A stretch of 40,009 nt of DNA, the filler included, from an uncultured virus (IMG/VR IMGVR_UViG_2502082094_000001) (taxonomy: Duplodnaviria > Heunggongvirae > Uroviricota > Caudoviricetes). It is 6 parts of one record of this genome, joined end to end, with 100 filler letters (N's around TTAATTAATTAA, not from the genome) between each part and the next. Parts side by side here need not be neighbours in the genome. Positions count along the whole stretch, not along the records: positions 10,751 to 18,231 come from IMGVR_UViG_2502082094_000001; positions 18,332 to 24,859 come from IMGVR_UViG_2502082094_000001; positions 24,960 to 32,836 come from IMGVR_UViG_2502082094_000001; positions 32,937 to 40,009 come from IMGVR_UViG_2502082094_000001; 2 more parts are not named here. The stretch is one strand, 5' to 3'. Position numbers and translations under genes: made by a program. This document shows positions 16,000-39,047 of the stretch, piece by piece. Numbering within the stretch: position 1 is the first letter of the stretch; every line of letters begins with the position of its first letter. Below the pieces are notes generated by a model that searched no databases, was not told where the DNA came from, and saw only the letters and a list, made by a program, of their open reading frames with translations.

Positions 16000-16329
16000 A
16001 TGGAACGACCGATTGCTGATATGAGACCTGTAGGACCGTTCTTTGATCTCCCAATGTCAGGGAGCAAAAGTATGCACGTAAGGTCTCATCTAGACCAATC
16101 CGAAGCCCCTAGCGATGAAGTACTCTCTGATATTGTAGAAGGTCTAGAAAGTACTGACTACGACATTAGTGAAGAAGATGTATTTAGTGAGACTAGAGAT
16201 GAAAATGGTGTAGTACACGTAGTTACTGGTGAAAATGATATTCCAGTAGCTGATGTGCAAGAGATCAGGAATGTGGTAGCAACGAATGTAGACTCTTCGG
16301 TCAACGAAGCATTCGTTAACTACCATTAA
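16000..16329 (+). CDS. RP-leader protein
   Basis: MERPIADMRPVGPFF; TATA about 25 nt upstream. Confidence 0.7.
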   Translation: MERPIADMRPVGPFFDLPMSGSKSMHVRSHLDQSEAPSDEVLSDIVEGLESTDYDISEEDVFSETRDENGVVHVVTGENDIPVADVQEIRNVVATNVDSSVNEAFVNYH

Positions 16330-16349
16330 GAACGCAACTCAGTTTTATA

Positions 16350-17012
16350 ATGCGTAGACCACTAGCAGATAAGAGACCTATAGGTCCATTTTTAGCTAGC
16401 AATAATGACAGTGTAGATTACATTGATACTAATGAAGTAGATTTTGATAATCGAGACTGGGAAAAACTAGAAGAGAATGATGTATCTGATCCATGTGTTC
16501 CTTATGTTCATATGTCACCTCCAATTGAGATTATTATACCTATGGAGCAGGCAAACCCAGTAGCACTGATAGATTATCCCGTATCTGATAAAGAGATATT
16601 TGAAATAGTATCAAATATAAACAGCAGAAATCAAGATCTGTTCATAGGAATACACGAGGCAGATAGCACCGACGCACAAAGGATAATGGAAGATGGTTAT
16701 TCAAAAAGCAAACTAGGTGAAAATACAATCTCTAACAATATTGACTTCAGAGAAAATGGCATATATACATGGCATACTATCTGGGATCTACACAATACAT
16801 ATGGTGATATGGCAGGTGTAGTGACCACATCTACCAGAGACAATCTTGTGGCCTCAGACATGGCTGCTTCTGTTACTATGTCCCCGGAAACATACAAGAA
16901 TAAATATAGTATGCCCTATAAACAATACATACAGTGCTTAAGAAAGTATGGGGCAACAGTCCCTATAGGCTTTGAAGAAGACATTATACAAGACATACCC
17001 CAGTCTATCTGA
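16350..17012 (+). CDS. RP-leader protein, possible ADP-ribosyltransferase-like fold
   Basis: MRRPLADKRPIGPFL; IHEA..AQRIMEDGY..NGIYTW. Confidence 0.6.
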   Translation: MRRPLADKRPIGPFLASNNDSVDYIDTNEVDFDNRDWEKLEENDVSDPCVPYVHMSPPIEIIIPMEQANPVALIDYPVSDKEIFEIVSNINSRNQDLFIGIHEADSTDAQRIMEDGYSKSKLGENTISNNIDFRENGIYTWHTIWDLHNTYGDMAGVVTTSTRDNLVASDMAASVTMSPETYKNKYSMPYKQYIQCLRKYGATVPIGFEEDIIQDIPQSI

Positions 17013-17124
17013 GTGGTTGCTACTCTCGCAGCGCATACTCAAGAGAAACGATTATAAGTGTTGGTTCTAGATTATACCTATGAGACGCCCACTTGCTGGA
17101 GAAAGAGGTTAAACGCCAAAGCAA

Positions 17125-17529
17125 ATGAACATAACACAAATAGAAGAACGAGCTGGTTTGCTTACTGAAGTTGTAGAAATACTTCCAGTGAGTGAAACAC
17201 AAGATCTGTACGGAGAACGTGGTAAACTAGTTTACATAAGACTCTCAGGCTCAGAGAAGATACCAAGAGCATTTAAGAGAACCAGAGCATTACAAAAGGC
17301 CGTAAGAACAGTTGGAACTATTAACATAGCTGTAGATTCAGTAAGCGATCTGTTTGATTTGGACAGAGAATCAATGCAGAGAGCATTTGATGTAGCAGAC
17401 GTGAAAAACCAAAGAAAGGTTGAAGAAGAGCAATATTTTAATAGAATAATTCCAGATGCTATACAAGAAAGAACGGATATAGGTAGCGTAGAAGTAATAC
17501 AATACGAGATACTAGTCAAAGTAGATTAA
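17125..17529 (+). CDS. hypothetical protein
   Basis: ORF track. Confidence 0.6.
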   Translation: MNITQIEERAGLLTEVVEILPVSETQDLYGERGKLVYIRLSGSEKIPRAFKRTRALQKAVRTVGTINIAVDSVSDLFDLDRESMQRAFDVADVKNQRKVEEEQYFNRIIPDAIQERTDIGSVEVIQYEILVKVD

Positions 17530-17561
17530 CATAAAAAGACCATTCGCAACCAGCAACTACC

Positions 17562-18221
17562 ATGTCAGACATTAGACCAAACGTAGAAGAAGTATTGGAG
17601 GTTAACGTAAAGTTAGAAACATCAGCAAGTACTGATGCCAGAGAAAGACTCACAGAAGCATTAGTGGACCAGATGCAGATTACCGTAGGTATAGTAACTA
17701 TAGGTGGTGAAGTCACATCTGACACCAACGTACAGGTCTTAGTTAGAAACTCTCAAGCATTCATTAATGTCTCGTCAATAGAGGAAGCAGTTAATGAGGC
17801 GTTTGGCTCAGCATATAGCACCAGAGGGGTTAATCTATCTCTTAGTAAACGAAGAATAATGCGTGGGCGAAGCGGTGGGCCAATCATTAGTAGAAGTGAG
17901 GAGACATTCAATATAAAGGCTCCGCTAGACAGAAATATAATAGTTGATGAAGGCAGTACGTTAGCGGATATAAGAGATGACATAAATGAGCTGCAAAAGC
18001 GGTTAGACAGAATGCTCCCACTGTCTATAACCGACTCTTTGTCTCTTGCACACGAGAACAACGACGGCGAAATAGAGATGTTTGCTGTAGAGTTCAGAAC
18101 TGACATGACTGATACCACTTTAAGAATACTAAATCTCTTGAAAGATGAGCTTAGACAAACTGACACTTTCAACTTCAACACTAATGCTATGACAGTCAGC
18201 GCAATGGAGGCAGAGCTATGA
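17562..18221 (+). CDS. hypothetical protein, apparently two small alpha/beta domains
   Basis: ORF track. Confidence 0.6.
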   Translation: MSDIRPNVEEVLEVNVKLETSASTDARERLTEALVDQMQITVGIVTIGGEVTSDTNVQVLVRNSQAFINVSSIEEAVNEAFGSAYSTRGVNLSLSKRRIMRGRSGGPIISRSEETFNIKAPLDRNIIVDEGSTLADIRDDINELQKRLDRMLPLSITDSLSLAHENNDGEIEMFAVEFRTDMTDTTLRILNLLKDELRQTDTFNFNTNAMTVSAMEAEL

Positions 18222-18811
18222 GAAGACCATTNNNNNNNNNNNNNNNNNNNNNNNNNNNNNNNNNNNNNNNNNNNNTTAATTAATTAANNNNNNNNNNNNN
18301 NNNNNNNNNNNNNNNNNNNNNNNNNNNNNNNGTATCCAAATTCAGACATAGATATAGATCTTTCAGACCACCCCACGCATGATGTCCAGTCAAACTCATA
18401 ACTATAGATACACGGCAGCGGAGACTGAATATACAAAATTCAGTCCTACAGTTTCAACCAATAGCTGAAGTAGATATAGAGTTTAAATGGCCAAAGGATA
18501 CAGCGTTAACTAATACTGGTGGTAGCATGTACTGGTCATATGAAATGTCTGAACCTATTAGCGAAGAGAAATTCGAGGAGTTTCTTGATAACGATACAGT
18601 AAGTAGCTTCTTTCCATCTAACTTTCAATTATCCGCCCGTGGAGACTCAATCTACACCCAGATAAAAAATAAAATTGATGTAAGACGTAGTAAGATGGGT
18701 CTTACTAGACAACGAGACTTTGCGTATGACGCATTGCTAGATAGTAACACTCCATCTCTTCCACTACGTAGCGGAAGGAGTTCAGATATAATTACTACTA
18801 TTGAGCCATGA
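18218..18811 (+). CDS. RP-leader protein start plus downstream coding fragment, interrupted by a gap
   Basis: ATG AGA AGA CCA TT (MRRP) at 18218 runs into N; coding resumes after 18332; they may not be the same gene. Confidence 0.45.
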
Positions 18812-19581
18812 TAAGACCATTTAAGAACAAAAGGCCGTTTGGCCCGTTTATAACAGGAAAAAGACTGCCATTCAGCTCTAGCAGTGTGAGCAGAGACTGG
18901 CAGTCAATGAGTAAAGACGAGCTTGACGCTCCATCAAGCTGGGACTGGCAAATTGATGATGAGTTAGCCCATTATGTCTGGCAGTCAACTATTGACTCTC
19001 GGTTTGTAGGCTTTGGCCCAGAACCTCCAATACTGCTTGAAGCATCTATGGGCTTCTTTGGGAACAAGAGTCTTTCTGATAATATCAATAACTGGTACTT
19101 TACTAGGAAAGAAGGCCAGTCTTTTGATGACCCTACTACATGGTGGCAAATAGGAAGGAAATTTGACACTGCTGAAGGAGATCCTGGTAGAAGCGATATA
19201 CTATATTCTACTGATACAAACCCACATCCATTAAGATCAAAGCTTCATGGTCAGCAATATACGTCTAACGGTGGTATGTTTACTTATGACTTTGAGCAGT
19301 GGCAAGGAGAAGAGCCCACGGGGATGATGCGGATTCCAGTGACTCGTGGATTGCTTGATGAGCTTAGAGATGACATAGATTCTACGCCATTTGAACAGTT
19401 CCAGATGCAATTTAGAACATACAGGGGTCAGTTTGCTGACGGGCCTGCCCCCACAGGAGACTTTGCTCATCCACACTTCAGACCATACCAAGATACTACC
19501 CAAGAAGATTATAAAGAATTATTCGACATAGCATTTGATTATATGAAGAGATCAGTTAGAATGGAAAATAGCAATATGTGA
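18808..19581 (+). CDS. RP-leader protein
   Basis: MIRPFKNKRPFGPFI. Confidence 0.7.
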   Translation: MIRPFKNKRPFGPFITGKRLPFSSSSVSRDWQSMSKDELDAPSSWDWQIDDELAHYVWQSTIDSRFVGFGPEPPILLEASMGFFGNKSLSDNINNWYFTRKEGQSFDDPTTWWQIGRKFDTAEGDPGRSDILYSTDTNPHPLRSKLHGQQYTSNGGMFTYDFEQWQGEEPTGMMRIPVTRGLLDELRDDIDSTPFEQFQMQFRTYRGQFADGPAPTGDFAHPHFRPYQDTTQEDYKELFDIAFDYMKRSVRMENSNM

Positions 19582-19613
19582 CCTTTATATATGAGGAAAA
19601 TCAAGTAAGTTAC

Positions 19614-19961
19614 ATGGAGCGACCACTTGCTGAACTCAGACCGTTCGGGCCAGTGATGTTTAGTCAGAATACTATGCCAAGACCAGAGCCCCCTGAGGCT
19701 GGGAGGCGTGAAAGAAGGAGTAAAGAAGAGATAATGGAGTTTATGGATATGGCATATGACCACCCTTGGACAGAGGAATATGCTAGAGAATACTTTAGAG
19801 GTATAGCTAATATGGATCCAGATAGTAACCCAGAGCACGTTAACTTTATGAAAGTATCAGCTGCTGCTGGTATTATAGGAAGCGACAATCTTGAGTCCCG
19901 GCGTAGTCCAAGCGAAATAGCAGAAATGTACATAGAAGAAAGAAATATAAACGTTCCCTAA
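19614..19961 (+). CDS. RP-leader protein
   Basis: MERPLAELRPFGPVMF; TATA (TTTATATA) about 25 nt upstream places the start at 19614. Confidence 0.75.
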   Translation: MERPLAELRPFGPVMFSQNTMPRPEPPEAGRRERRSKEEIMEFMDMAYDHPWTEEYAREYFRGIANMDPDSNPEHVNFMKVSAAAGIIGSDNLESRRSPSEIAEMYIEERNINVP

Positions 19962-20208
19962 TACAGAGCACTAAAACATGTCGTTCCTAAACATGGGGTA
20001 GCGTGCCGTGATATGGTTCTGCGTATTAACCGCATTCTGCCCATTCAAATCGGCAGCCTCAGGCCCTGTACCGCCGGTTTTCAACACCCAAACACCCGCG
20101 CCGTGTGGTATCCTGTATCTCAATTTCACCCAAGACAGTACTAAATTACAGATCTAATTTACATTCTGTTCCCACAATTTTATACCACGATACTGCGTAC
20201 AGGTATAT

Positions 20209-20541
20209 ATGGATACTCAAGAGTTTAAAGAAGTAATGGGTAGATTGAGACAGGGTGGAAATGATATATTATTTACTCCAGAACTTATCCGTCAAACTTC
20301 TTCTAGTGCTAGAATGGATATGAATATTCAGACATGGGTGTATGAAGTAGATGCTGTTAATGAGATTGTAGCGAGAAACCGCGTTCGTTCATATGCTAGA
20401 CGCAATAACCCTAGAGTCAAAAACATACTAGAACCTAAAATAGACTCAGTTGAAGACACTGAACAAGGCACACTAAGACAATACTTTCCGAACACATTTA
20501 AGCTAAGTAGGTACGAGGTTAAAGTAGTTGTTTCGGTATAG
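20209..20541 (+). CDS. hypothetical protein (family with 28725 and 30695)
   Basis: ORF track; start conserved in the second variant at 39945. Confidence 0.7.
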   Translation: MDTQEFKEVMGRLRQGGNDILFTPELIRQTSSSARMDMNIQTWVYEVDAVNEIVARNRVRSYARRNNPRVKNILEPKIDSVEDTEQGTLRQYFPNTFKLSRYEVKVVVSV

Positions 20542-20573
20542 AGTGTATCAACAGAGCACTCGACCGATACCGT

Positions 20574-20589
20574 GAAAACCTTTTTATTG
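20574..20589 (+). promoter_or_regulatory. BRE-TATA promoter
   Basis: GAAAACC-TTTTTATT. Confidence 0.5.
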
Positions 20590-20635
20590 TAAGCCGACAT
20601 ACTTATCGTGAGAGCAACAAAAGGAGACAGATACA

Positions 20636-21004
20636 ATGTCAATATTTGAAACTCAAGTAAAAGACGTAGCAGAGAGAAGTGACTCGAACCCCCTTGAACT
20701 CGTAAGCAGATTCACTTACGTAAATAGCGATGACGTGGAGAGCAACACGGCAACAGTTACAGCTAGTGCTGGAGAAGTAGTAATTATTGAAGGAGGCGAC
20801 CTAGCAGATGCAGATACCATCAACGTTGAGCTTGCAGAGGAAGCTCCGCCTAACTCAAAGGTTATAGTCAACGGAGTAGGTGGAGGAAGCCATACAATTA
20901 GTGTCTCTTCTCCCGGAGATCCAGGTATAGAGGGGACTACTGACCCAGGCACTGAGGCTTCGATTACGTATCTGTCTGACGGCAGCGATTACTACGAAAT
21001 TTAA
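20636..21004 (+). CDS. beta-rich candidate virion or fibre protein
   Basis: ends ITYLSDGSDYYEI, a pattern reminiscent of small phage fibre domains. Confidence 0.5.
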   Translation: MSIFETQVKDVAERSDSNPLELVSRFTYVNSDDVESNTATVTASAGEVVIIEGGDLADADTINVELAEEAPPNSKVIVNGVGGGSHTISVSSPGDPGIEGTTDPGTEASITYLSDGSDYYEI

Positions 21005-21065
21005 GCCAGCAGTCTTTTGCGGTAATTTTTTAACCCCCGAGCAGGTATATATAAATGTAAACAGT

Positions 21066-21556
21066 ATGCTAGACCAGCTTCCACCTCAGACAATTCCGGT
21101 TGTACTAGGACTGATAGCTATATTGGCGTCTTACTTTGGAGGTAAGTATAAAAAAGGCAAGCTAGAAACGAATCTGAGAGATTTACTTAGAGAAAATGAC
21201 GTATTCCCTAGCCCAGAAGTAGTAAAGCATGATAGCTCGTTCATTGAGAAATCATTAAAGGATAATATAGATAACTACGACGAGAGTCCAGTACCATTTA
21301 AGCTACACACTTCAGATTCAACTTATTACGTGCCTACCTCTAAGGCAACAATGGAAGAGGCGAAGACATTCAATATATTCGAGTATCTTCCATACAGACC
21401 AGATAGGTTTGACTGCGAAGACTACGCCGCAGCCTATATGACATTTGTTTCATTCTTCTTCGGCAGTAATGCAGTTGGAACTGTATATGACTTTGGTGCT
21501 GGACATGCTTATAACATCATTCTCTACTCTGACGGCTCGATGGAGCTCTATGAGCC
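21066..21556 (+). CDS. membrane-anchored transglutaminase/papain-like Cys protease candidate, truncated by a gap
   Basis: N-terminal hydrophobic helix; FDCEDYA, HAYN, LYE. Confidence 0.65.
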
Positions 21557-21679
21557 NNNNNNNNNNNNNNNNNNNNAAGTTATCTAGAGAATGTAGTAAA
21601 CTAGGTTATAAATCTATGGCAGATAGCAAGTTCTGGATGGCTAGTTTTATACCGTGTGAGTCCATATAAACAACTAAGA

Positions 21680-22597: not shown

Positions 22598-22838
22598 TCT
22601 TACGTGAAGACCCACGGAACGGAGGGTCAAGCGATTGCTGCGACAATTAATGTTAAGAGCCTCTACCTCTACTAAGAACGTATTACTTCTACAGCTATAG
22701 TATATACATGTATACGTATAAAGGTTACTGTTTTAACCTTCTTAACGCTCTAACATTAATGTTTCGCAGCACGCAGCGACACACCAATGGAGCAAACAAT
22801 AGTTTTATATGGTAGCGTGCCGATGCACTAAGCAACCA

Positions 22839-23162
22839 ATGGATAGAGTGTTCAGATCCAATAAAGATTGTACACTTAGAGTTAAATATAGATACAGAAC
22901 AAGAACTGGACCAGTAGAAAGTATCCCATCACTCAAAGAGTCCGTCCGTGTGGAAGCATCTAAAGATGTGCCAGTATCAAATGTAAGTATAAACGTAGGC
23001 AGCGAAGACTTTGTAACCGAAGTGGCTTTAGATATAGATCAAAAGAACTTCACTGATGAAGATGAAGATAAAGTAAAGGGTGCTGTTGGAAGAGCGTTAA
23101 TAGCAGGTGGCACAGAGAGACTTAACTTCGAGAGTTATGAGTACACTGTTGTCTCTAGATAG
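22839..23162 (+). CDS. hypothetical protein
   Basis: ORF track, start uncertain. Confidence 0.5.
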   Translation: MDRVFRSNKDCTLRVKYRYRTRTGPVESIPSLKESVRVEASKDVPVSNVSINVGSEDFVTEVALDIDQKNFTDEDEDKVKGAVGRALIAGGTERLNFESYEYTVVSR

Positions 23163-23224: not shown

Positions 23225-24603
23225 ATGCCAGCAAACTCACTAAGTGTTGAAAGCAGAGAATTTACCAAGTTCAATGCTTCAAGACGCCAAGGTAGAATAG
23301 ACATAACAGGTAAATATACTGTATCTGTCTCTAATGGTGGCTTCTTTCCTGTATTCGGTGCTACACTAAATGTAACTTCACTAAAATCACCAGAGAATGA
23401 AATAGAGCTAATAGCCCAAGAGACAGCATCTCTTGGGACTATATCAGGAGCCAAACTTCAGAAGCAAGCATCAAATTCAATGTAAGCGCTCCTGAAGGAG
23501 ACATTAGCTCATTTGCGTCTGAGGCATGTAATAATTCTAGTGTATCAGTCTTAGCTCAAGAGAATGTAGCTGGCCCCCTTCTTGCTATTGCTTTTGACGA
23601 GTCCTTTCAAGTAGCATCTAGCTCATCCTCATGTGATCTGGGGAGTGGCGGAGGCTCTAGACCCAGTCCAGAGCCACCAGACCAAGATCCACAACCTCCT
23701 GGAGATCAACCTCCTGAGCAGGGAGCACCAGAAGCCGGTACTATATCTGGCCCAGATGAAATACAAGCAGGGACTCAAGCGAACTTCACATATCAAGGAG
23801 GCCCTGATGACATTGCGGCTTACAACTGGAACGTTAGTCCAAGCAACATAGCTCAAACTAACCAGCGTGGAAGCACACTCGAAGTAGAGTTTGACTCCGG
23901 TGGAAGGGATGCAGTAATAAGTGCATCTGCTACTACGTATGACGACAGAACTACTCCAACTAGCCAAAAGACAGTAACCATTCTAGGCAGTGGCAGTGGA
24001 GGTACTGGTGGAGGAGAAACTCCGCCTAGCGATATATCCATATCAGGGCCTGAAAATACGTTTGTCAACAGTCTTGAGAGGTGGCAAGCAGAAGCTCCAT
24101 CAGGCGTAAACACGGCAGAGTTAGAGTGGGATATGGATGATGGGACAACCTTCTCCGGAGTGTCTGTAACTCACTCATACAGTGAAGAAAGACCATATCT
24201 GATTACCCTGAGCTACCAAGGCCAAGAAGTAGATGATCTAATGGTTGATGTTGCTGAAGAGCCTGTAGCGTCAGGTGGGATTGAAGGTCTAGATGCACTT
24301 AACGAAGGCCAACGATACACCTTCACCTATGAGGATCAGGGTGACTACGGCGTATCAACTCAAGTGTACTGGACATTTGGAGATGGAGAAAATGATGTAG
24401 GACAAGAAGTACAGCATACATACGATGATACTGGTGACTATGAAATGAGAGCAGAAGTCAGAGAGCTTGGAGGAGCAGGAACAGTCACCCTTGAAGAAGA
24501 TGTGATGTACGTTACTGTACAAGAACCAGTACGTGGAGGGCTAAGTGCAGGTGGCGTCCCATCAATGTCAGAAGCCGCACAACAACAGAAGAGAGAATAC
24601 TAA
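23225..24603 (+). CDS. Ig/PKD-domain protein 1, fragmented by probable frameshift errors
   Basis: N-domain VSNGGFFP, Pro-rich linker, PKD motifs WDMDDG..VTHSY and WTFGDG..HTYDDTGDY. Confidence 0.7.
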
Positions 24604-24604
24604 G

Positions 24605-25481
24605 ATGCCAGGTTACAACTTGGAAATTAAAGAACAGTCTGTCTCCGGCATGAAGGCAACAGAGCCTTCAGACAAAATGAATGTAACCGGGACGCTTGAA
24701 ATTAAAGTAGCAAATAATGGGTTAGTTCCTACATTCACATTACTACAGATCTCAGAGTTTAAAATAGAGAACATGTAGTAATTGAAAACAAGTATATAAC
24801 AGTTGGAGTACTATTTGGCGAAAGCAAGTCCAAGTAGAGTTTGACACCAGTTCATCAGANNNNNNNNNNNNNNNNNNNNNNNNNNNNNNNNNNNNNNNNN
24901 NNNTTAATTAATTAANNNNNNNNNNNNNNNNNNNNNNNNNNNNNNNNNNNNNNNNNNNNTCAGTGGACGTTGAAAATGTACAGGAACCCAACTTTGGAAG
25001 AGTAGACTATGAATGGTACTATGGAGATGGAGAGTCTCAGATAGTACATGCAGCTGAAGGGGGTCAAACAACATCTCACTCATACGCTAATGCTGGAACT
25101 TACACAATACTAGCCCAGGCTGTAAGTCTTGGCAGCGGGTTAGAGAGAAATGTAATAGGTGAGGATACTTTAAACGTGGAAGTAGAAAGAGGGGAGATTG
25201 ACCTTGAGACTGGACAGATTGAGGGACCAGCTGAACCAGTGCTTGGGCAAGAAGAAGAGTACTCATACGAGGATGAGGGCACTTACGGCGTATCTGTACA
25301 GAGATACTGGAGCTTTAGTGATACTGACGAGAATGAAGTTGGACAGACTATAACCCACACATTTGAGGAAAGCGGAGAGCAAACAATAACTTGTGAAATT
25401 AGAGAAATAAACCGTGGAGGGACAATCACGCTTGAGGAAGACACCATGACAGTGGACGTACAAGATAACAGTTGGTTCTAA
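24605..25481 (+). CDS. Ig/PKD-domain protein 2, interrupted by frameshift and gap
   Basis: VANNGLVP N-domain; WYYGDG..HSYANAGTY; last domain similar to that of protein 1. Confidence 0.6.
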
Positions 25482-26134
25482 TGAGAATTACTACTCAGTC
25501 AGCTATCGATATTTCAGAGTCACTAGCATCGTACATGCTTGCTTCTTATATATCTCACGAAAATGATCAAGACGTAAGCTTTGAAAAGCGCATGGGGTAT
25601 GTAGATACAGGGAAATTCTCAAGAGCAGACATATACTACTCTGGCAAAGACATGGGTATAGAGGTGAAAAGTCTTGCTCACGGCAGCGGAGCACTAAAGG
25701 GAGTTATTCAAGCATCCATGTACAAAGAACAAGTAGACAATGGTGTGTTCTGTATCCAAAAACCGCGCCGGAAGTCTCTAAGAGACACCCTAGAGGGCAT
25801 GTGTACTTCATACGGGGTGGGCCTAGTTTACATACAAGGGATACCATCTATCTGCTCAAAAGATACAATTGAGAAAGCTACCGGAGGCTGTACTAAACCA
25901 TTTGAACTCTGGAAATCAGGCACATATAGAAATACAAGACTTAATATAATATCGAACAGTCAGACTGAATGGATAGAAGAATATATAGTTACGTTAGATC
26001 GGGTTATAGAAGAGTATAGTGACGATATATTCAATTTCAAGATAGAACCTGATCCAAGCACTCCAGGATTAAACGAGCTACATACGGAAGAGCAATCAAG
26101 TACCCAACACCCGTCCGTGTTGGAGTACAACTAG
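25481..26134 (+). CDS. PD-(D/E)xK nuclease-like protein
   Basis: RADI..GIEVKS..GVIQASMY. Confidence 0.7.
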   Translation: MRITTQSAIDISESLASYMLASYISHENDQDVSFEKRMGYVDTGKFSRADIYYSGKDMGIEVKSLAHGSGALKGVIQASMYKEQVDNGVFCIQKPRRKSLRDTLEGMCTSYGVGLVYIQGIPSICSKDTIEKATGGCTKPFELWKSGTYRNTRLNIISNSQTEWIEEYIVTLDRVIEEYSDDIFNFKIEPDPSTPGLNELHTEEQSSTQHPSVLEYN

Positions 26135-27354
26135 AGTACGAACTGTTCTGCGGTTATGCTCTTGCTAGCTGATGACACAACTTCCCCGCTTATAATTGCC
26201 TCTACGATTACCTCATATTCACCTGATGTAGCATATCTATGAGTTACTTCTCTACCGTTCAGAGTTATACCGTCACCCATATCCCATCTCAAAGTACTTG
26301 CTTCAGATAAATTGCTCCCCTGCACACTAGCATTGAAGTCTTGTTGGTTACTAACAGAGTCTGGTGAGCTTATTCTATCTACTATTACATTAGGGAAGCT
26401 GACCTGTACTTCTAGGTTATCATCGTACCCAGTATCAGATACAGCAGTTAGAGTGTAATTACCCTCTTCATCATATGCGTAAGAAACACTATTTGATTGA
26501 GTTGTTCTAGATTCCCCATCTCCAAAGTTCCATGTTATATTACTTACTTGGCTTAAATTCTCACCAGTAGCATTCCATGTAGCTTCATTACCTACGTTAA
26601 GCTCTACAGGGCCAACTAGCCCAAACGGAACCAAACTTACATCTATCTCCTTCGACGCCGAGTACCCTCTCTCTGTATCAACTGTTATAGTATAGTCTCC
26701 AGTCTGATTATATGAGTGTGTTACTGCTCTTCCTGTGTATGTGCTTCCGTCTCCCATGTCCCACGAAACACTCCCTATGGAACCTTCTCCAACTGTGCTT
26801 ATTTCCCACCTGTATTCTTCATTTATATTTACTTCTGACTGCCCGCTTACGTTTACTGTAAGCGTTTTACAATCAGATCTGTTTACAGGTACTTCTAACT
26901 CATTGCTGTATGTAGCTGCCAGTAGTATTTCAGACATTGTAAAATTGATTTTTGCTCTTACTTTACCATCCTGGCACACTTCTTGTACCACGTTTCTAAG
27001 AAAGTCACCATCCCGTTCAAACTTAATGTTAATTGTTTCTGTGGACCCACCACTTATTGAGCCTATAGACTGTGGTTCTTCTATTGTACCTACGGTTAAC
27101 GATGATTGGTTCTTTATAAGCTCTACTTTAGCCCCTGTAATCCTAGTACTTCTTGTTGGCAACAACCCTGTGTTAGTAACGTCTATAGCAAATGTTCCAT
27201 CTATTGTAGGGACAGTACCTGATGTATCTATGTTTGCTTGCTCAAACCTAGGATTATCTATTACTGTAGTAAGAACTATAGACGGTCTGGGTTGTATCTC
27301 ATTCTCAGTAGTCACCCCTGTAAGTTTTTTCCTTGCTCCTGATATTAGATCCAT
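26131..27354 (-). CDS. Ig/PKD-domain protein 3 (three PKD repeats)
   Basis: WDMGDG, WNFGDG, WDMGDG repeats; N-domain VTNTGLLP. Confidence 0.85.
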   Translation of the reverse strand: MDLISGARKKLTGVTTENEIQPRPSIVLTTVIDNPRFEQANIDTSGTVPTIDGTFAIDVTNTGLLPTRSTRITGAKVELIKNQSSLTVGTIEEPQSIGSISGGSTETINIKFERDGDFLRNVVQEVCQDGKVRAKINFTMSEILLAATYSNELEVPVNRSDCKTLTVNVSGQSEVNINEEYRWEISTVGEGSIGSVSWDMGDGSTYTGRAVTHSYNQTGDYTITVDTERGYSASKEIDVSLVPFGLVGPVELNVGNEATWNATGENLSQVSNITWNFGDGESRTTQSNSVSYAYDEEGNYTLTAVSDTGYDDNLEVQVSFPNVIVDRISSPDSVSNQQDFNASVQGSNLSEASTLRWDMGDGITLNGREVTHRYATSGEYEVIVEAIISGEVVSSASKSITAEQFVL

Positions 27355-27921: not shown

Positions 27922-28719
27922 ATGACAGCACTTAATCTTAGTGTTTCACAGCGCAGGGTGAACAGTTTTAGCGCTACATTAGAGAATGGGACCATGAGTG
28001 TTGGTGGAGAGTATGAATTTAAAGTGAGCAATGACGGGCTAATCCCTATAGGCAAGATAAATATAAGAATAGATGATGTTAGCATATCTGAGCCTGAGGC
28101 ACTGTTAATATCTGATGAGAATAAATCCATAGGCAGGCTTTCTCCACTATCCACTCAAACCGTCACCGTGGAGTTTAACGAAGAATTTGAAGACTCAGAA
28201 GTTATTGAACAGGCCAGATCAATATGTGAAAACAAAACTATACCACTTTCTACTAGCTCACTATTAAGAGGCAGAGTGTTTAATGTAAATGCTTCTAGCA
28301 GTGGAGAGTATAATGTGCTTAGTCTAGACTGTGATCTAACGCCAACAAGCCCGTCTTTACCTGAACCCGAGCCAAGCCCTGGACAGCCTTCTCAACCACC
28401 CGATAGCGGCCAAGGGCAACAAGAAAATGACCGCTTGTCTGGGCCAAGTGTTATAACTGTAAATACTACAGAGCAATATGTCTGGTCTGACTTTGATGAT
28501 TCTACGGTAACATTCAACTGGGCATTGTTAAGTGAAAGATCAGACCCAAACCCAGATGCTACTGAACTTGCGTTAGCTGATGAAGAAATATCTAATGAGC
28601 TAACTTTAAGTCTCACTTCACAGGTACAGGGTGACTTCTTAATTGTAATTGAGGCATACAACGCTAACCAAGAGCTAGCAGACAGCGTACAAAAAGTAGT
28701 TTCAGTTGTAGCTCAATGA
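27922..28719 (+). CDS. Ig-like protein 4 (same N-domain, Pro-rich linker)
   Basis: VSNDGLIP N-domain, PEPEPSP linker, Ig-like C-terminus. Confidence 0.7.
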   Translation: MTALNLSVSQRRVNSFSATLENGTMSVGGEYEFKVSNDGLIPIGKINIRIDDVSISEPEALLISDENKSIGRLSPLSTQTVTVEFNEEFEDSEVIEQARSICENKTIPLSTSSLLRGRVFNVNASSSGEYNVLSLDCDLTPTSPSLPEPEPSPGQPSQPPDSGQGQQENDRLSGPSVITVNTTEQYVWSDFDDSTVTFNWALLSERSDPNPDATELALADEEISNELTLSLTSQVQGDFLIVIEAYNANQELADSVQKVVSVVAQ

Positions 28720-31221: not shown

Positions 31222-31887
31222 ATGACACTATCACGAAGGTTCGTAGACAAAGTAGCAATATGTAGCAGCAGGCTATCATCAAATAACTACTTCAGTGTAT
31301 CTGCAAAAGACGTAGAAGCCACAGATATAGAGGCTGGAGATCAAGTTAGGGTGGTACTGATACGTACTGATCTTGATGGAGACATTAAACCACGGGATAG
31401 AGCTGTATACCAGAATACGCTTCAAAAGTCAAATCAGATATATGTGCCTAAGGATGCTAGGGATAAGCTTGACTTACAAGATGGAGACATAATCAAGTAT
31501 ATAGTTATACCTAAGAAAGCTTTCCCAGGTGTGATGGACGGACCTCTTAGGGAAAGATTTGGCGACATTCTTGAAGGCAGTGTAGGTAGTGATGATGAAA
31601 CCGAATCTCAAGAGCAAACCCGCCCGAGCAGAGATACCACAAGTGCAGAGTTCTCAGCCTCAATGCAAAAGACAGGACAGATCACCGTACCCAAAAGCGT
31701 AAGAGAAGATATGGGCCTTATACAAGGTGATACTGTACTTGCTACAATCAAGTGGCAGGGGGACGATATATCTGCTAATAAGGACATTGGTAGCGGCAAC
31801 AGAATTATAATTACAAAAGACCAGCGTGACGAACTAGGGCTTGAACCAGGTGACGAGCCTACTATAAGACTAGCGGTGTTTGGATAA
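31222..31887 (+). CDS. multi-AbrB/SpoVT-domain DNA-binding protein
   Basis: QIYVPKDARDKLDLQDGD, GQITVPKSVREDMGLIQGD, RIIITKDQRDELGLEPGD. Confidence 0.85.
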   Translation: MTLSRRFVDKVAICSSRLSSNNYFSVSAKDVEATDIEAGDQVRVVLIRTDLDGDIKPRDRAVYQNTLQKSNQIYVPKDARDKLDLQDGDIIKYIVIPKKAFPGVMDGPLRERFGDILEGSVGSDDETESQEQTRPSRDTTSAEFSASMQKTGQITVPKSVREDMGLIQGDTVLATIKWQGDDISANKDIGSGNRIIITKDQRDELGLEPGDEPTIRLAVFG

Positions 31888-32201
31888 TGCCTGAAGGGCC
31901 AGGAGGAGGTCCAAGACCGCTTGCTTCATCATCACTTAATATTGAAATAGAAATAAATGCTCCAGATGAAGATCCAGACGAAATGCTAATCCAAGGTCTA
32001 ACATCTAGGTTTAGATACGTTGATAGTATAAGCATAAGTGAAGAAGTAGAAACAGTTGGCGGTGAAGCATTTGATAAAGTAGTAATTGAAGTGCTGTTTG
32101 AAAGCAATGAGGTAGAACTTGTATCAGTCAACGATGTAGTTAGTGATGTAGAGTACGCACTTGGAGAAGAACGCATTGGAGTAACAATAGAGGCAATATA
32201 A
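31887..32201 (+). CDS. hypothetical protein
   Basis: ORF track, TAATG coupling. Confidence 0.6.
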   Translation: MPEGPGGGPRPLASSSLNIEIEINAPDEDPDEMLIQGLTSRFRYVDSISISEEVETVGGEAFDKVVIEVLFESNEVELVSVNDVVSDVEYALGEERIGVTIEAI

Positions 32202-32836
32202 TGGCTGAAGGGCCACTTGGCTTTCCGAGGCTTACTGATATAGGGCCATTTGCTACAGTAGGATCAGATGATATTAATGACGACAGAATCAAAAGAGCCG
32301 CTGATAAGTTCAAACCTAGGTTTAATATTGAAGACTCAAAAGGCAATGACCCATATCCAAAATGGGATAGAGCAGATACAAAAGAAAGTGGCGTTACTGG
32401 CTTGTGGATAAAGAACAAAGAAATTATGGTAATAGAACCAAGAAGTGGGAGGTTATCAAAGGTTCATACAGAGATAGCACAGGAGCTGTATGAAAGACTT
32501 GATTATAATGAACTTGAAGTTATGCCTTGGTCTACTGTGAAGACTAGAAGATCTATACGAGTAGACGAAGGTTGGCACGCAGATATAAATTCTGTAGGAG
32601 AAAGCATGAATAATGATTATGTGAGAGACATACTAAACATATCTACTACGACAGCTACTCCAAGCGATCTGTGGCCTGTAGTCTATACCCTGTGGCTCAC
32701 TAATCACCCATATAGCACTACAACAAGATATAATTATCTAGATGGTGAAGGAGAGGTGTTCCAGCTAGCAAGTGCGTATAGAGAGTTGTCATTCAGTCTT
32801 GGAGGACTGCCTGAACCTAAAATACGGAGGACAGAC
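32201..32836 (+). CDS. hypothetical protein, truncated by a gap
   Basis: N-terminus GPLGFPRLTDIGPF resembles a degenerate leader. Confidence 0.6.
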
Positions 32837-33661: not shown

Positions 33662-33714
33662 TGCGGATATAGATATGTTCGTATGTATTATAAAGGTTTG
33701 TACTACATCTGTAA

Positions 33715-33963: not shown

Positions 33964-34262
33964 TAAAGACCAGCCTCATCAAGCTTTTCCTGTATTTCTT
34001 CATTTGATAAGTTTGTAGCGGATCTGAAATAGTTTCTCATCATCTTCCGCTTATTTTCCTCTTTTGCTATGTTTTCGTACCAAGTCTCAGCTGTTTCGAG
34101 TATTGGATTATCTTCAGTATCTGTCTGTTCAGGTTCAGAGTCAACCTGCTCCGGTGATGTGTCTGTATTGTTTGGGTCTTCATCAAGCGTTTCATTATCC
34201 TCAGTTTCAGTATCGCTAAAATCTAATACCGGACCAAACGGTCTTTTGTCTTTTAACGGTCT
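33963..34262 (-). CDS. RP-leader protein, start lost in a gap
   Basis: manual translation RPLKDKRPFGPVLDFSDTE...EKLDEAGL*; not in the ORF track. Confidence 0.65.
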   Translation of the reverse strand, partial: RPLKDKRPFGPVLDFSDTETEDNETLDEDPNNTDTSPEQVDSEPEQTDTEDNPILETAETWYENIAKEENKRKMMRNYFRSATNLSNEEIQEKLDEAGL

Positions 34263-34339
34263 NNNNNNNNNNNNNNNNNNNNGCTAGGTATAAATGGTAA
34301 TGTGTTGAGCAGACTGACAGAAGTGAACTCGAAGACACA

Positions 34340-34615
34340 GTGTCAAAAGAAGTTATGGAAAAAGCGGCTAAAGGTGGTAATACAATAATAAAAGAAGTAA
34401 ACCTGTCAGTAAATACTGATCCAACTGCAGACGAAAGGAGAAGCGTGGTAGAGATGGGTACTTTAAATAAGGCCCAATATTTACAGCAATATGAAGTACA
34501 AACTAAGCTAGAGGAAATACCCCAAGGGCTAATAAACGCAATACATAACACCGTGGTAGAAATAGTAGGTGATCTAGAATACGATATAACAGGGACAAAG
34601 ACTACCGTAATCTAG
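34340..34615 (+). CDS. hypothetical protein, start uncertain
   Basis: ORF track. Confidence 0.45.
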   Translation: MSKEVMEKAAKGGNTIIKEVNLSVNTDPTADERRSVVEMGTLNKAQYLQQYEVQTKLEEIPQGLINAIHNTVVEIVGDLEYDITGTKTTVI

Positions 34616-35304
34616 TTGCTGAACGGGTTTATATTTGATCTTGAAGATACCTGAGTAACATATGTTATGTCAAAGTCAGACAACCCTAACTCGCTAGAAG
34701 CAATAACATGGAACGGTTTGCTTTTTATTCCGTTGCTGTACATCATTGTAGCTCGATTATTGCTTGCTTCTAGAACATATGCGTCATCTTGTGAAACTAC
34801 ATCAGGAGAACCTATACGGCGTACTTGATCTATTGTTGGGTCTAGTTCTTTAAAAGTAAACGCATCTTTTATTGTTGCTGTACCATACGAGCCTCTGCTT
34901 GGCATTTCGATTGCTAATGTCCCCCTTACTCTCTTTGATCTCACAGGAGGCTCGACACCTATAGCCTTGCTTTTAACGGTTACGTCAGACTTGATGTAGC
35001 ATACGTTATCAAGTATTTCGTCTTCAGTATTTCTTAACTTATCAAGCTCAGAAATAAATTCTTGAACTTGGGCAAGAGTTACTCTGTCCGAATTGAATAC
35101 TGTTTCTGTAGATACACCCATTTCTTTAAACTCAAAAACATCTAAGCCTACTACGTCGTTAGCCGCCATTACAGCGTAGTCTGATCTAACTTTAGTCCTT
35201 GTTCTAAATGACACTCTGGCACGAGAAGTAAGCAGTGGGGTAGTAGGCCCAGTGTTATCTACAGAGTATTGTTCTGGCATAGCTAGTGATTGAGCCCCGG
35301 ACAT
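34612..35304 (-). CDS. hypothetical protein
   Basis: 230-aa ORF. Confidence 0.65.
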   Translation of the reverse strand: MSGAQSLAMPEQYSVDNTGPTTPLLTSRARVSFRTRTKVRSDYAVMAANDVVGLDVFEFKEMGVSTETVFNSDRVTLAQVQEFISELDKLRNTEDEILDNVCYIKSDVTVKSKAIGVEPPVRSKRVRGTLAIEMPSRGSYGTATIKDAFTFKELDPTIDQVRRIGSPDVVSQDDAYVLEASNNRATMMYSNGIKSKPFHVIASSELGLSDFDITYVTQVSSRSNINPFSN

Positions 35305-35320
35305 ATAAATATATGTAATT

Positions 35321-35776
35321 CTAGGTCATATCGTCTATCGCTTCTATTACCTGCTTTGGGCTATCTACCCCTAACTTCTCCATAAGCATCTCCATGTCTG
35401 GGTCAGCCGTATTGTTTTCTGGCAGTATATCGCGTTGCTCTTCCGTAGCTAAGTGTCTATATTGGTCTGTAGTCTCTGGGCTCGCATGATCCACGTATTG
35501 GCCAGCTTCTTCAAGACTCGAATTGTTTGCCAGATCTGTTATCCTGCCATGTCTAAACTTATGTGGAGTAAGTTTATCCATATGCTCAAAGCCTCCAAAG
35601 GCGTGTTTGTAGGCTTTGTCTATATCTTTAATTCTGTTTTGAGCTGTCCGTGTGGTAAAGGGGAATATCTGACCGCTACTAATGTCTTTTGCTTTCATGT
35701 ACTCGTTAAGTATATCAATTAGCTCTTGTGGAACAGCGATCATATCCCGCTTATAGCCTTTACCTCCCTTCTTTAG
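35321..35776 (-). CDS. tyrosine recombinase (Xer/integrase family), C-terminal part
   Basis: TPHKFRHG (HxxR), DHASPETTDQY (H...Y); 5' end lost in gap. Confidence 0.9.
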   Translation of the reverse strand, partial: LKKGGKGYKRDMIAVPQELIDILNEYMKAKDISSGQIFPFTTRTAQNRIKDIDKAYKHAFGGFEHMDKLTPHKFRHGRITDLANNSSLEEAGQYVDHASPETTDQYRHLATEEQRDILPENNTADPDMEMLMEKLGVDSPKQVIEAIDDMT

Positions 35777-35796
35777 NNNNNNNNNNNNNNNNNNNN

Positions 35797-36545
35797 GCTA
35801 TCGTCGTCGTCGGCTACTCTCGACAGTCAGCGGCGCGCTCCTCGCTGAAGCCCAGCAACTCCAGCATAGGGGCTCGTTGTAGCGACGTAGGCCGTGAGGG
35901 CGGGAGTGGCGACAGCGTAGAAGTCGTGAATATCGCTGCCGAGAGCGTCTCGGAGGTCGCCTCCCGAGCACGCTAGTTCGTAGGCTCTAGGGTGGTCTCG
36001 GCTATTGAACTCCACGTAGGTAGTGCTCGGCTCGTCGGAGTCCGTCTCGTTGCTATCGTCCTGTGCGTCTGTGGCTTTGTAGGCGGCGAAGTCGGTCATG
36101 GTAGTCACGAGTGCTGTCTGTCAACACTCAATTCGTTATACGACCGTCGAATTAATAAGTCTTTCGCTCTAGGATGCTTTTACACCTTAAATTGTTAATA
36201 CCGCAAAACGTAAAATATTTTTGTTGCTCGCAAAAATTTTTTGCTTTTTTCGCAAAACGCGAATTTTATGAACTGGATAGCCGACCGGCTAACGGACCCC
36301 CCACTAAAATTCGGGTCCATGTTTTTGAAAATAATATCCCCCGTATATCAGGGATCTTACAGGGTCCGTACAGGTATATACACATGGAGATTAGCCGTAA
36401 TATTTATATCATAGAGTCCCAATAGCCAGAACATGAAGTATTTGGAAATCCCAGATGAACTCCACGAGCAGGCAGAAGACGTAATGGAAGAACATGGATA
36501 CAAGACATTCACTGAGTTCGTCAGAGAAGCAATAAGATTCAGAAT
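35797..36545. repeat. variant copy of 14178-14930
   Basis: near-identical to about 36295, diverges, then realigns at the RHH gene. Confidence 0.9.
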
Positions 36546-36576
36546 AATGAGGCTTAAGGAGGATGGTAAAGAATGA
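36433..36576 (+). CDS. RHH regulator, allele of 14815
   Basis: MKYLEIPDELHEQAEDVMEEHGYKTFTEFVREAIRFR. Confidence 0.8.
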   Translation: MKYLEIPDELHEQAEDVMEEHGYKTFTEFVREAIRFRIMRLKEDGKE

Positions 36577-36991
36577 CTGTTATCCAAGGACAACGAGAGT
36601 CAATAGAGCAAGGATTACAAACTTGCTTACTTGAGATCTTAGACAAAATGTATGACAATACAGAGAAAGAACCTGTACGAGAAAAACAAGGCAGAAGCCA
36701 GTTAGAATCTTCAGGATACTATCAGATGGATGTAGCAGTACCAGATGACAATATAGCTATTGAGTGTAAGGGAGTTAAGAATAATATTAAAAGAGGGATA
36801 GGGCAATGTATAGCATATGAGACAGATGGATGGGCAGCATACGTATGCGTCCCAGATGATTATATTAATGAAGATATGCTTAGACGGTGTATGAGGGCTC
36901 AGATAGGGCTTATTGGGGTAACAACAGACTCACTTGACAAAGATCTTACTGAATTTTATGAAATTAATGTGTATCTACAAATAGACACAGA
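36573..36991 (+). CDS. PD-(D/E)xK nuclease-like protein, truncated by a gap
   Basis: MDVAV..IAIECKG..GIGQCIAY. Confidence 0.7.
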
Positions 36992-37011
36992 NNNNNNNNN
37001 NNNNNNNNNNN

Positions 37012-37598
37012 TAAGAATTATAGGACCTATGTTTAGTTCATCTTCAGATACATCAATGAATGAAAGCAGGCTAAAGCAAGACATTATTAATGCTGGAGGA
37101 ATAAACCCTACACACAGTTATCTGGGTAGTAGTATTCTTATTATTGATTTTCTAACTATAGGAGACAACCCACAGAACGAGTTCTCAAGCAGTGTAGAAA
37201 TGAATGAAAACCAACTCATTAAGAGTTGCCTGATCAGATTACCACATATAGACACAAGTAATAAAAGTGTATGGGATGATCTATCTGAAAGCATTGCGAA
37301 AGTAGTTGAGCTTGAAACTGATATAAACCCATATCCTGGGCTGATGAAAACTGAAAGAAGAATGGAAACATTTAATTATGGAGAAGGGGTAATTATAAGA
37401 CCTAATGATGGATACAATAGCTCTGGCGGAGATGTACTGACACCTCATGTTGTGTTTGAGGCTATAGAATCAAACAACGGAACTTTATCTGTGCCTATGA
37501 GTTTTCAAGATCTTCTAAAAATAATTAAGGGGTTAAATATTATGTGGGATTCAAGCTATAGCACTCTTGAAACTGTAAAGAGTTCAGAAGTGATGTGA
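37012..37598 (+). CDS. probable RP-leader protein, start lost in a gap
   Basis: begins RIIGPMFSSS, matching the second half of the leader. Confidence 0.55.
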
Positions 37599-37601
37599 AC
37601 A

Positions 37602-38585
37602 ATGAGAAGACCATTCAAAGACAAGAGACCGATAGGACCGCTGTTTGGTCAAAGCTCTGCTGATACTATACAATCTAGATTAACATCTGGAGTGCGAGAA
37701 GATATAGGTTTTGAAGAGGGTGGGAGCGTTAAAGTGTATTTCCACTCTAGCACCAACATGGATGAGCTAAAGAATGGAGAAATCGCATTGTTTGTCACGT
37801 CTCCGCCATATAATGTAGACTATACTTATGGAAGCATAAACGATGCTAAACCGTATCGAGAGTATATGTCATTACTAGCTAAAGTATTTAGTGAAGCATA
37901 CAATAAGCTAATGCCAGAAGGCCGTCTTTGCGTAAATGTGCCTACTATAGATAAAACAAATGCTGATGCTATGGGAGAGGGTAATATCCCAGTGGCATCT
38001 GACTTGACTAGTATGATGGTAGATGATCCATCGCTGGGAAATAAGTTCAGCACTCCAGAAATAAATGAGCTAAAGCGCACTACCGACTACTCGTTGTTTG
38101 ATCATATAATATGGAATAAGGGCAGATTTGATACCGAAGTAAATCTGGGCAGTCTAGGTATTGGAAGACCATTTAGATTTGAGCATGATATTACTCATGA
38201 GTCTATACTAATCTTCCAAAAGCCAGGTATGCGGAATTTGAGTACTATAGATCAAGATAGACTAAATGCATCTCGCCTGAATAAGGACTGGTGGACTTCA
38301 GGACCTGGATACGAGTTTGACACTAATGCTAAAAGCAATCTTTGGAATATAAGACCATCTAACAAGATAGAAGTCAATGGAGAGAAGGTTCCCACGTTCC
38401 CAGAGGAACTCCCACGGCGACTAATTCAGGGATACTCCTTTGTCGGAGATATAGTAGTTGATCCGTTTGCTGGTGTGGGTACTACGTTGAAAGTGGCTAA
38501 GGACCTTGACCGGCTTTCCGTGGGGTATGAGTTAAGAGAAGATTTGAGACCAGAAATAGAAAAAAGAGTGGGGGAGAGCGTATAG
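37602..38585 (+). CDS. beta-class DNA amino-methyltransferase (N4-C/N6-A) with RP leader
   Basis: MRRPFKDKRPIGPLF; motif IV TSPPY precedes motif I DPFAGVGTT. Confidence 0.92.
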   Translation: MRRPFKDKRPIGPLFGQSSADTIQSRLTSGVREDIGFEEGGSVKVYFHSSTNMDELKNGEIALFVTSPPYNVDYTYGSINDAKPYREYMSLLAKVFSEAYNKLMPEGRLCVNVPTIDKTNADAMGEGNIPVASDLTSMMVDDPSLGNKFSTPEINELKRTTDYSLFDHIIWNKGRFDTEVNLGSLGIGRPFRFEHDITHESILIFQKPGMRNLSTIDQDRLNASRLNKDWWTSGPGYEFDTNAKSNLWNIRPSNKIEVNGEKVPTFPEELPRRLIQGYSFVGDIVVDPFAGVGTTLKVAKDLDRLSVGYELREDLRPEIEKRVGESV

Positions 38586-38699
38586 AGAACACAAAGCNNN
38601 NNNNNNNNNNNNNNNNNGCATTTGATTATATGAAGAGACAGTTAGAATGGAAAATAGCAATATGTGACCTTTATATATGAGGAAAATCAAGTAAGTTAC

Positions 38700-39047
38700 A
38701 TGGAGCGACCACTTGCTGAACTCAGACCGTTCGGGCCAGTGATGTTTAATCAGAATACTATGCCAAGACCAGAGCCTCCTGAGGCTGGAAGGCGTGAAAG
38801 AAGAAGTAAGGAAGAGATAATGGAGTTTATGGATATGGCATATGACCACCCTTGGACAGAGGAATATGCTAGAGAATACTTTAGAGGTTTAGCTAATATG
38901 GATCCAGATAGTAACCCAGAGCACGTTAACTTTATGAAAGTATCAGCTGCTGCTGGTATTATAGGAAGCGACAATCTTGAGTCCCGGCGTAGTCCAAGCG
39001 AAATAGCAGAAATGTACATAGAAGAAAGAAATATAAACGTTCCCTAA
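38700..39047 (+). CDS. RP-leader protein, allele of 19614
   Basis: two amino-acid differences (S/N, I/L). Confidence 0.75.
   Translation: MERPLAELRPFGPVMFNQNTMPRPEPPEAGRRERRSKEEIMEFMDMAYDHPWTEEYAREYFRGLANMDPDSNPEHVNFMKVSAAAGIIGSDNLESRRSPSEIAEMYIEERNINVP

Follow-up and report, generated by a model that had tools for sequence, protein, structure and literature searches.

Why should a series of genes with unrelated products all begin with the same peptide? The question is raised by a stretch of DNA of 40,009 nucleotides, filler included, from an uncultured virus (IMG/VR IMGVR_UViG_2502082094_000001), which at its full length is called the window here. A first-pass annotation of this sequence had noticed that several of its genes open with a shared leader built around Arg-Pro, hereafter the RP tag, and had proposed that it loads interchangeable effectors into the virion of an archaeal virus or docks them on a common partner. 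The results below support the view that this 15-residue N-terminus is a portable docking or address peptide on interchangeable cargo; where it might direct that cargo can be answered with graded probability.

The RP tag and its cargo

Six open reading frames (ORFs) of the window start with the complete motif M-x-R-P-[ILF]-x-[DEN]-x-R-P-x-G-P-phi-phi, at 16000, 16350, 18808, 19614, 37602 and 38700. The DNA pattern ATG-NNN-MGN-CCN-N12-MGN-CCN-NNN-GGN-CCN likewise has six matches in the window, compared to a mean of 0 and a largest count of 0 in 100 dinucleotide-preserving shuffles. Three further tags, at 18218, 34262 (minus strand) and 37014, are interrupted by runs of N; every site listed by the first-pass annotation exists, six of them complete and three cut. 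The ORFs at 16000..16329 (+, 109 aa, MERPIADMRPVGPFF) and 16350..17012 (+, 220 aa, MRRPLADKRPIGPFL) carry the complete tag at their ATG, followed by cargo of no known family, and the ORF at 18808..19581 (+, 257 aa, MIRPFKNKRPFGPFI) belongs to the largest cargo cluster other than the methylases, with 8 members. A 115-aa protein, again with the complete tag at its ATG (MERPLAELRPFGPVM), is encoded at 19614..19961 (+) and, near-identically and with the same leader, at 38700..39047 (+) on a separate scaffolded contig; because the two copies are 98% identical in DNA, they were counted as one cargo. The tagged ORF at 37602..38585 (+, 327 aa, MRRPFKDKRPIGPLF) encodes an N6/N4 DNA methyltransferase (PF01555, E 1.5e-33, residues 61-316).

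Among the interrupted tags, the ORF start at 18218..18231 (+) reads MRRP plus two bases before it runs into an assembly joint. The ORF at 33964..34262 (-, about 101 aa, ..RPLKDKRPFGPVL), whose start codon is masked by a 20-N joint, adjoins an RHH gene and two conserved 100-aa paralogs, and the ORF at 37014..37598 (+, 194 aa after the gap, ..RIIGPMF) is a variant with Ile at position 10. The genome nearest to the window is G001 (1.2 Mb in 7 contigs, 82% complete, 88% shared words with the window). On its contig C2, which is 111,825 bp long, interrupted window tags are complete, at C2:86205 (MRRPFRDKRPIGP..; the 127-aa counterpart of ORF 18218) and at C2:111515 on the minus strand (MNRPLKDKRPFGPVL).

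The tag consists of two R-P-hydrophobic units with a period of six, the second of which closes with G-P-phi-phi; in one tagged protein the unit RPFKDK is duplicated. Relaxing the motif leaves the core M-x-R-P-[FL]-x3-R-x-phi-G-P-phi, with Pro or I, L, V or K at position 10, and Arg, Pro and Gly as the most conserved residues. In all relatives the motif is strictly N-terminal, at a near-fixed distance from Met1, so that the first-pass proposal stands on a point that could have refuted it. Conservation begins at the ATG and ends at codon 15: identity between cargo clusters is 62% over residues 1-15, a figure of which about 40% is imposed by the search expression, and 9% over residues 16-30. The linker that follows (residues 16-27) is rich in Ser, Asp, Glu, Gly, Gln and Asn, with 18% Ser, and does not provide the h-region of a Sec, Tat or class III signal peptide; most tags have K-R or E-R and lack the twin arginine of Tat signals. 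In net charge, the tag (+2.5) and the cargo (-8.5 per 100 aa) are of opposite sign.

Selection acts on the peptide, as had been claimed from synonymous codon differences in the window. In a set of 87 distinct leaders, information at third codon positions is 0.04-0.5 bit for P4, P10, G12 and P13, with P4 encoded by CCA50/CCG22/CCT11/CCC4, P10 by CCT29/CCA29/CCG23/CCC6 and G12 by GGG29/GGA24/GGC19/GGT15, and the 60 nt upstream of the tag hold at most 0.4 bit per position. With free variation at synonymous sites and no conservation of the upstream DNA, the tag is a modular peptide under purifying selection at the protein level. A DNA-level repeat or recombination site, which would have overturned the proposal, is ruled out by the same free synonymous variation and unconserved flanks.

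The cargo, in turn, is diverse. BLAST sorts the 129 cargo sequences that reach 60 aa or more into 54 clusters, and among the 27 clusters with at least two members only 1 of 351 profile-profile pairs exceeds 50% probability in hhalign; judged by sequence comparison, the tagged cargo parts are mutually unrelated, in agreement with the first-pass description. The search for the cargo repertoire that it had suggested yielded 144 distinct tagged proteins (relaxed expression on the retrieved loci) with a single recognisable kind of cargo: a known domain is present in 1 of 37 cluster representatives searched with Pfam, PHROGs and NCBIfam, namely the N6/N4 DNA methyltransferase, and every member of that cluster is tagged. 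The complete tagged proteins are 65-393 aa long (median 148 aa), and their median pI is 4.7. The N-terminal position of the tag, its flexible linker, its unrelated cargo and peptide-level selection together support the notion of a modular address tag.

The tag is confined to one family of elements. In G001 the pattern has 9 matches, all on contig C2 between 83,987 and 111,515; a tag profile search of G001 with E up to 10 returned the same 9 sites and nothing else, and clustering all C2 N-termini without a supplied motif recovered the tagged group. The class to which G001 belongs is represented by 69 other genomes, and these have no match, compared to 2 for a reversed-pattern control. In metagenome contigs, a stricter pattern retrieved 94 stretches; they stem from brines and hypersaline lakes and from several assemblies made independently. 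Four of the hits were chance matches (L010, L066, L080, L089) and did not enter the counts of tagged proteins. Tagged arrays reach 8 or more genes in 5.7 kb (L029). A search of sequencing runs listed 8 DNA datasets in 5 studies as carrying the element, and no RNA or particle-fraction run.

Searches for known relatives of the tag or its cargo gave no name to either. No model of Pfam-A, NCBIfam (E up to 1) or PHROGs covers residues 1-20 of 34-37 representatives, and megablast of window positions 15000-39900 against phage and plasmid collections gave 0 matches. In an Atlas look-alike search, tag residues 1-24 scored 0.75 and the 257-aa cargo at best 0.82, the latter a weak NodB lead, both below the tool's meaningful level. 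A word-index protein search with a 40-residue tag profile gave no useful name among the 24 matches listed; one of them, named "ribosomal protein L24E", was judged spurious. Full-text literature searches found no description of the tag motif, and the word "motif" is absent from the accessible portion of a preprint on nanohaloarchaeal viruses (10.1101/2025.02.15.638363). The tag sequence, virus type and host lineage are new, while terminal address peptides as such are of an already known kind.

A virus-like element binned with small-genome archaea

Contig C2 encodes a family B DNA polymerase (PolB) with an adjoining LAGLIDADG endonuclease, dCTP and dCMP deaminases, a Cas4-like exonuclease, UvsX/Sak4-like, D5-like helicase and UvrD-like helicase proteins, SprT-like, MORC-like and two TFB-like proteins, a ParA/Mrp-type ATPase and a tyrosine integrase, as well as PKD/subtilase, UPP synthase and UbiA genes. 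In the window, the replication or early module lies at 1..14064 on the minus strand. Housekeeping genes are absent among the scanned ORFs of this 111.8-kb contig, and a chromosomal island was rejected on this ground. The element also has a proliferating cell nuclear antigen (PCNA) of its own (P0025; G001:C2 34,555-35,322, minus strand; L094:14555-15322), with matches to PDB 1rwz (E 5e-18) and 3hi8 (E 7.5e-13), and a host-type PCNA is encoded on G001:C7. With 33 homologs of about 272 aa, 46-85% identical and located on contigs of up to 76-107 kb, this divergent PCNA defines a family of large elements.

Candidates for structural genes come from a cluster of beta-rich proteins at G001:C2 20,010-28,276 (+; L094:10-8276). 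For a 194-aa protein of this cluster, the top match of the AlphaFold model (pLDDT 68, pTM 0.57) was chain 6oj0_Z of the Sulfolobus polyhedral virus 1 (SPV1) capsid, with a Foldseek E of 1.3e-5 and a VIA-align Z of 11.4 (root-mean-square deviation 2.3 Å, 122 residues aligned); the next unrelated structure reached Z 9.2 and HHIV-2 reached Z 8.1. A 269-aa protein with 25 homologs in the representative library (pLDDT 81, pTM 0.82) has its top matches in the same capsid, 6oj0_A by Foldseek (E 3.2e-3) and 6oj0_T by VIA-align (Z 6.5). Because two genes of one cluster best match two chains of one archaeal capsid, a jelly-roll capsid virus is the best reading of the element. As judged from these models, a virus with jelly-roll capsid proteins is moderately supported, with a plasmid as the alternative.

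The host is linked to the element by binning alone, which places it in an archaeal class with genomes of 0.5-1.7 Mb, presumably the Nanohaloarchaeota.

Further observations concern the assembly. The window is a scaffold of an element of roughly 112 kb, its contigs being joined by 20-N or 44 N-TTAATTAATTAA-44 N joints. Mapping it on C2 showed that the pieces past 32.8 kb are ordered differently in G001, and gene order in that part of the window is therefore unreliable. Three joints fall exactly on tag-coding DNA (N runs at 18232-18331, 34263-34282 and 36992-37011), where the shared 45-nt sequence probably breaks assemblies; it may also be a site of cassette exchange, the order of cassettes being different in the window and in G001:C2. 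At 35321-35743 (-), beside an assembly joint, a tyrosine integrase is represented only by its C-terminal 140 aa, which may reflect a gene split by integration or a plain assembly break.

Two sequence strings recur among other genes of the window. An N-terminal beta-rich domain (..NVTGTLEIKVxNxGL.P..) is found in four proteins (23225-23485, 24545-24778, 26131-27354 on the minus strand and 27922-28719); two of the four are fused to PKD repeats, no signal peptide is visible, and they may serve in particle decoration or adhesion. A string ..[AG]IE[CV]K(G/S)..G.GQ.., with no Pfam hit, is common to the ORFs at 25472-26134 (+), 36573-36989 (+) and 39056-39613 (-) and suggests a PD-(D/E)xK nuclease-like core. 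One of these candidates lies directly upstream of the tagged methylase, and the two may form a pair resembling a restriction-modification system.

Further leaders in the same genome

The RP tag is not the only N-terminal label of the element. A second leader, M-G-L-[EDK]-[EDQS]-[FY] followed by a Ser/Asp-rich linker, opens 17 ORFs of C2, all on the minus strand between 32,368 and 81,408, whose products include the UvrD-like helicase, the LAGLIDADG endonuclease, a second methylase and many ORFans. In the window, as M-G-L-[ED]-[ED]-F, it starts several minus-strand ORFs of the replication or early module, at 1569 (helicase), 2005 (SprT-like, with MSLEDF), 6607, 7905 and 14064. Its DNA pattern matches C2 at 9 sites; the 69 other genomes contribute another 9 hits, each of them single, and the control 2. 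Related strings occur at C-terminal ends, where PolB closes with ..RLDDYMEISD and another protein with ..ELDEFQ. The canonical clients of a sliding clamp, that is PolB, the UvrD-like helicase and the LAGLIDADG endonuclease, bear the M-G-L-E-E-F or L-D-D-Y-M motif, of L-[DE]-[DE]-[FY] type, and not the RP tag.

GLLAFA and GLMSFI are quoted as non-canonical clamp motifs of PolD1 (PMC10087552). As G-L-x-x-F has the form of these motifs, the second leader is a more credible candidate than the RP tag for binding to the element's PCNA, and we infer that it may dock replication proteins there. With the replication genes marked in this way, the RP tag probably docks elsewhere.

Two adjacent ORFs at 31887..32836 (+), with MPEGPGGGPRPL.. 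and MAEGPLGFPRLTDIGPF.., share a third, related leader, M-P-[EQR]-G-P-L-G-x-x-R.., which is common to the otherwise unrelated conserved families of ORFs 31887 and 32201 (loci L030, L035, L064, L079 and L012). In the 32201 family it continues as ..R-L-T-D-I-G-P-F, which looks like a shortened RP tag, and a homolog of 31887 lies directly upstream of a tagged array on a 92.9-kb contig. The family of the 269-aa putative capsid protein has a conserved N-terminus of its own, M-[AS]-L-[DE]-I-L-G-[DN]-P-F, similar to both the RP tag and the second leader. The coexistence of the tag with at least one other leader in one genome is unusual. More than one N-terminal label in the element favours docking on a common partner, the second option of the first-pass annotation, as the general principle, with the virion as one candidate destination among several.

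Possible destinations of the tag

Considering a label shared by so many proteins, one can ask what receives it. In the reading that we tentatively prefer, the flexible Ser/Asp/Asn-rich linker would tie the tag to interchangeable acidic cargo domains, and the tag would dock all tagged proteins on one common receptor, made or exploited by a virus-like element of about 100 kb that resides in small-genome hypersaline archaea. The likeliest destination would be the assembling particle or its DNA-containing core, and the particle would carry the fast-changing accessory proteins and the orphan DNA methylase, along with the DNA, to the next cell. We give such co-delivery via the particle or genome core a little less than an even chance. 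What points to the particle is the combination of a hypervariable ORFan array with an orphan methylase, the precedent of phage T4, the capsid-like genes and the separate leader on replication proteins.

The closest parallel is the capsid-targeting sequence (CTS) of T4. The polymorphic internal proteins of T4, which act as blockers of restriction enzymes, have nothing in common but a 10-residue N-terminal capsid-targeting leader (PMC9026906, PMC12373910); as in the element, this short leader, present on IPI-III and Alt, is the sole common part of unrelated, polymorphic hotspot proteins, and it is modular and transferable. The sequences are unrelated, however, with the T4 leader comprising about 10 residues that end at the gp21 cleavage site. 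T4 builds an HK97-type head on a scaffolding core and has a prohead protease; Pfam and PHROG scans of the ORFs examined here detected no counterpart of these, and the present element has modelled jelly-roll capsid-like proteins, acidic rather than basic cargo and an archaeal host. Phage P1 offers a second parallel in its Dar system, in which the packaged methyltransferase/helicase DarB, a DNA-modifying enzyme, is delivered with the DNA against restriction. A delivery of this kind would account for an orphan methylase that bears the tag in the company of many small ORFans, but Dar proteins are incorporated by ordered protein-protein contacts without a common linear leader, and the present system is known from genes alone. 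Short terminal peptides on a linker also send diverse cargo into the shells of encapsulins and bacterial microcompartments (BMCs). Those peptides are usually C-terminal or helical, in contrast to the RP tag, their shells are of HK97 fold or BMC type, and no encapsulin or BMC shell gene was found among the scanned ORFs.

Several observations weigh against delivery with the particle. The T4 mechanism requires a scaffolding core and a protease; the ORFs examined with Pfam and PHROG contain no terminase, portal, HK97 capsid, scaffold or prohead protease, and after position 15 there is no conserved residue that could mark a cleavage site. Jelly-roll viruses with an inner membrane are not known to load internal proteins in the manner of T4. 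The capsid assignment comes from models of moderate quality (pLDDT 68 and 81), and Z 6.5 by itself is weak. On C2, about 55 kb separate the tagged array from the capsid-like genes, and the array is oriented divergently to the replication module, an arrangement that would fit early genes as well. At 22809..23162 (+), an ortholog of a tagged cargo cluster has a decayed tag, with the internal MDRVFRSN kept and the RPxGPFF half and the linker gone, so some cargo may function untagged. In the IMG/VR virus collection the strict pattern found no relatives, although near-identical records may be missing from the collection as searched, and a search for related loci with two proteins of the capsid-like cluster found none there either. 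The single IMG/VR match to the pattern was attributed to chance, as it sits within an ORF on the opposite strand. The archaeal virus proposed in the first-pass annotation is moderately supported by the best match of two models to SPV1 capsid chains, set against the lack of terminase, portal and HK97 proteins in those scans and of IMG/VR relatives.

If not the particle, the receptor could be a hub inside the cell: the element or host PCNA, bound at a second site, a different factor of replication or transcription, or a replication compartment. A PCNA family belongs to the element itself, and the tag resembles PIP-box motifs in being a terminal short linear motif with a flexible linker, by which many unrelated proteins could share one hub. 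Phi11-G-P-phi14-phi15 has the psi-x-x-theta-theta hydrophobic spacing of the PIP box (Q-x-x-psi-x-x-theta-theta), with basic flanks, and DNA methylases are natural clamp clients, as Dnmt1 illustrates. The paper cited above for PolD1 describes an N-terminal clamp motif on a short linker in human p12 (KRLITDSY) and PIP motifs that lack Gln (PMC10087552). The tag has no Gln at the PIP position, where position 8 is K, I, S or N, its theta residues are often aliphatic, and what it conserves is Arg, Pro and Gly rather than the hydrophobic plug residues. The second leader shows that the element makes general use of N-terminal docking motifs, yet it is this other leader that the replication enzymes bear, with L-D-D-Y-M instead of the RP tag at the end of PolB. 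No chromosomal protein of G001 has a similar motif, by the tag profile, that the tag might mimic, and why a replisome should need some 50 fast-changing ORFan families is hard to explain. On balance we consider docking on such a hub unlikely, though clearly worth keeping in view. A more direct target would be the DNA itself, the AT-rich DNA of the element, to which the two K/R-R-P units could tether the very acidic cargo as an AT-hook or "molecular sled", with co-packaging as a side effect. The opposite charges of tag and cargo, the repetition of the R-P unit with its period of six and its duplication as RPFKDK in one protein, the A+T content of the tagged region (58-61%) and the fact that the sole recognisable cargo acts on DNA are all consistent with this. 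The R-G-R-P core of the AT-hook is absent, however, since at neither position 2 nor position 8 does Gly rank within the eight most frequent residues, and no Pfam AT_hook match was obtained with E up to 0.01. A pure DNA anchor would have no use for the conserved Asp/Asn at position 7 and four hydrophobic positions, and simple electrostatic binding is weak in molar salt. We regard a tether to DNA as improbable.

The remaining alternatives would have the tag act on the cargo itself. As a protease or unfoldase site, either propeptide or degron, it could cause the accessory set to be activated or destroyed together, and its strictly N-terminal position at a near-fixed distance from Met1 would suit such a role. 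The phi-G-P-phi string and the G-P-L-G of the third leader resemble collagenase-type substrates, and among the gene products of the element are an S8 subtilase with PKD domains, a SprT-like metalloprotease and an M73-like protein, although the first and the last of these have the look of extracellular or secreted proteins. T4 leaders are likewise clipped, but the RP tag is followed by no conserved residue, and a degron would not require 13 conserved ones; we regard a processing or turnover signal as quite improbable. Alternatively, the first 15 codons could tune initiation or pause the ribosome, thereby co-regulating the array. The conserved block does begin exactly at the ATG, and R-x-x-G-P loosely recalls the arrest motifs R-A-G-P and R-A-P-P. 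The spacing differs from known arrest motifs, though, a chain of 13 residues barely fills the exit tunnel, two or three leaders per element suit addressing better than pausing, and since synonymous sites are free, no RNA element is conserved, all of which makes a translational device highly improbable.

Returning to the preferred reading of an address to the particle, its boldest extension is that a jelly-roll virus of about 100 kb, preying on ultra-small archaea of salt lakes, sorts its proteome by an N-terminal address code, with M-G-L-E-E-F leading replication and repair proteins to its own sliding clamp, the RP tag leading a fast-evolving arsenal and a methylase to the particle or genome for delivery to the next cell, and M-P-E-G-P-L-G leading to a further destination. 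As a whole this is doubtful; if true, an archaeal virus would possess a protein-sorting system that is general and reprogrammable, and with two or three leaders in one genome viral protein sorting becomes directly testable. If the tag is an address label, about 50 protein families without a function become clients of one receptor, which probably serve counter-defence or host take-over in a virus whose prey are ultra-small symbiotic archaea. The 15-residue tag might, moreover, ferry foreign proteins in halophilic systems, and the principle of one leader for many payloads, familiar from T4, would then extend to archaea and to another capsid lineage.

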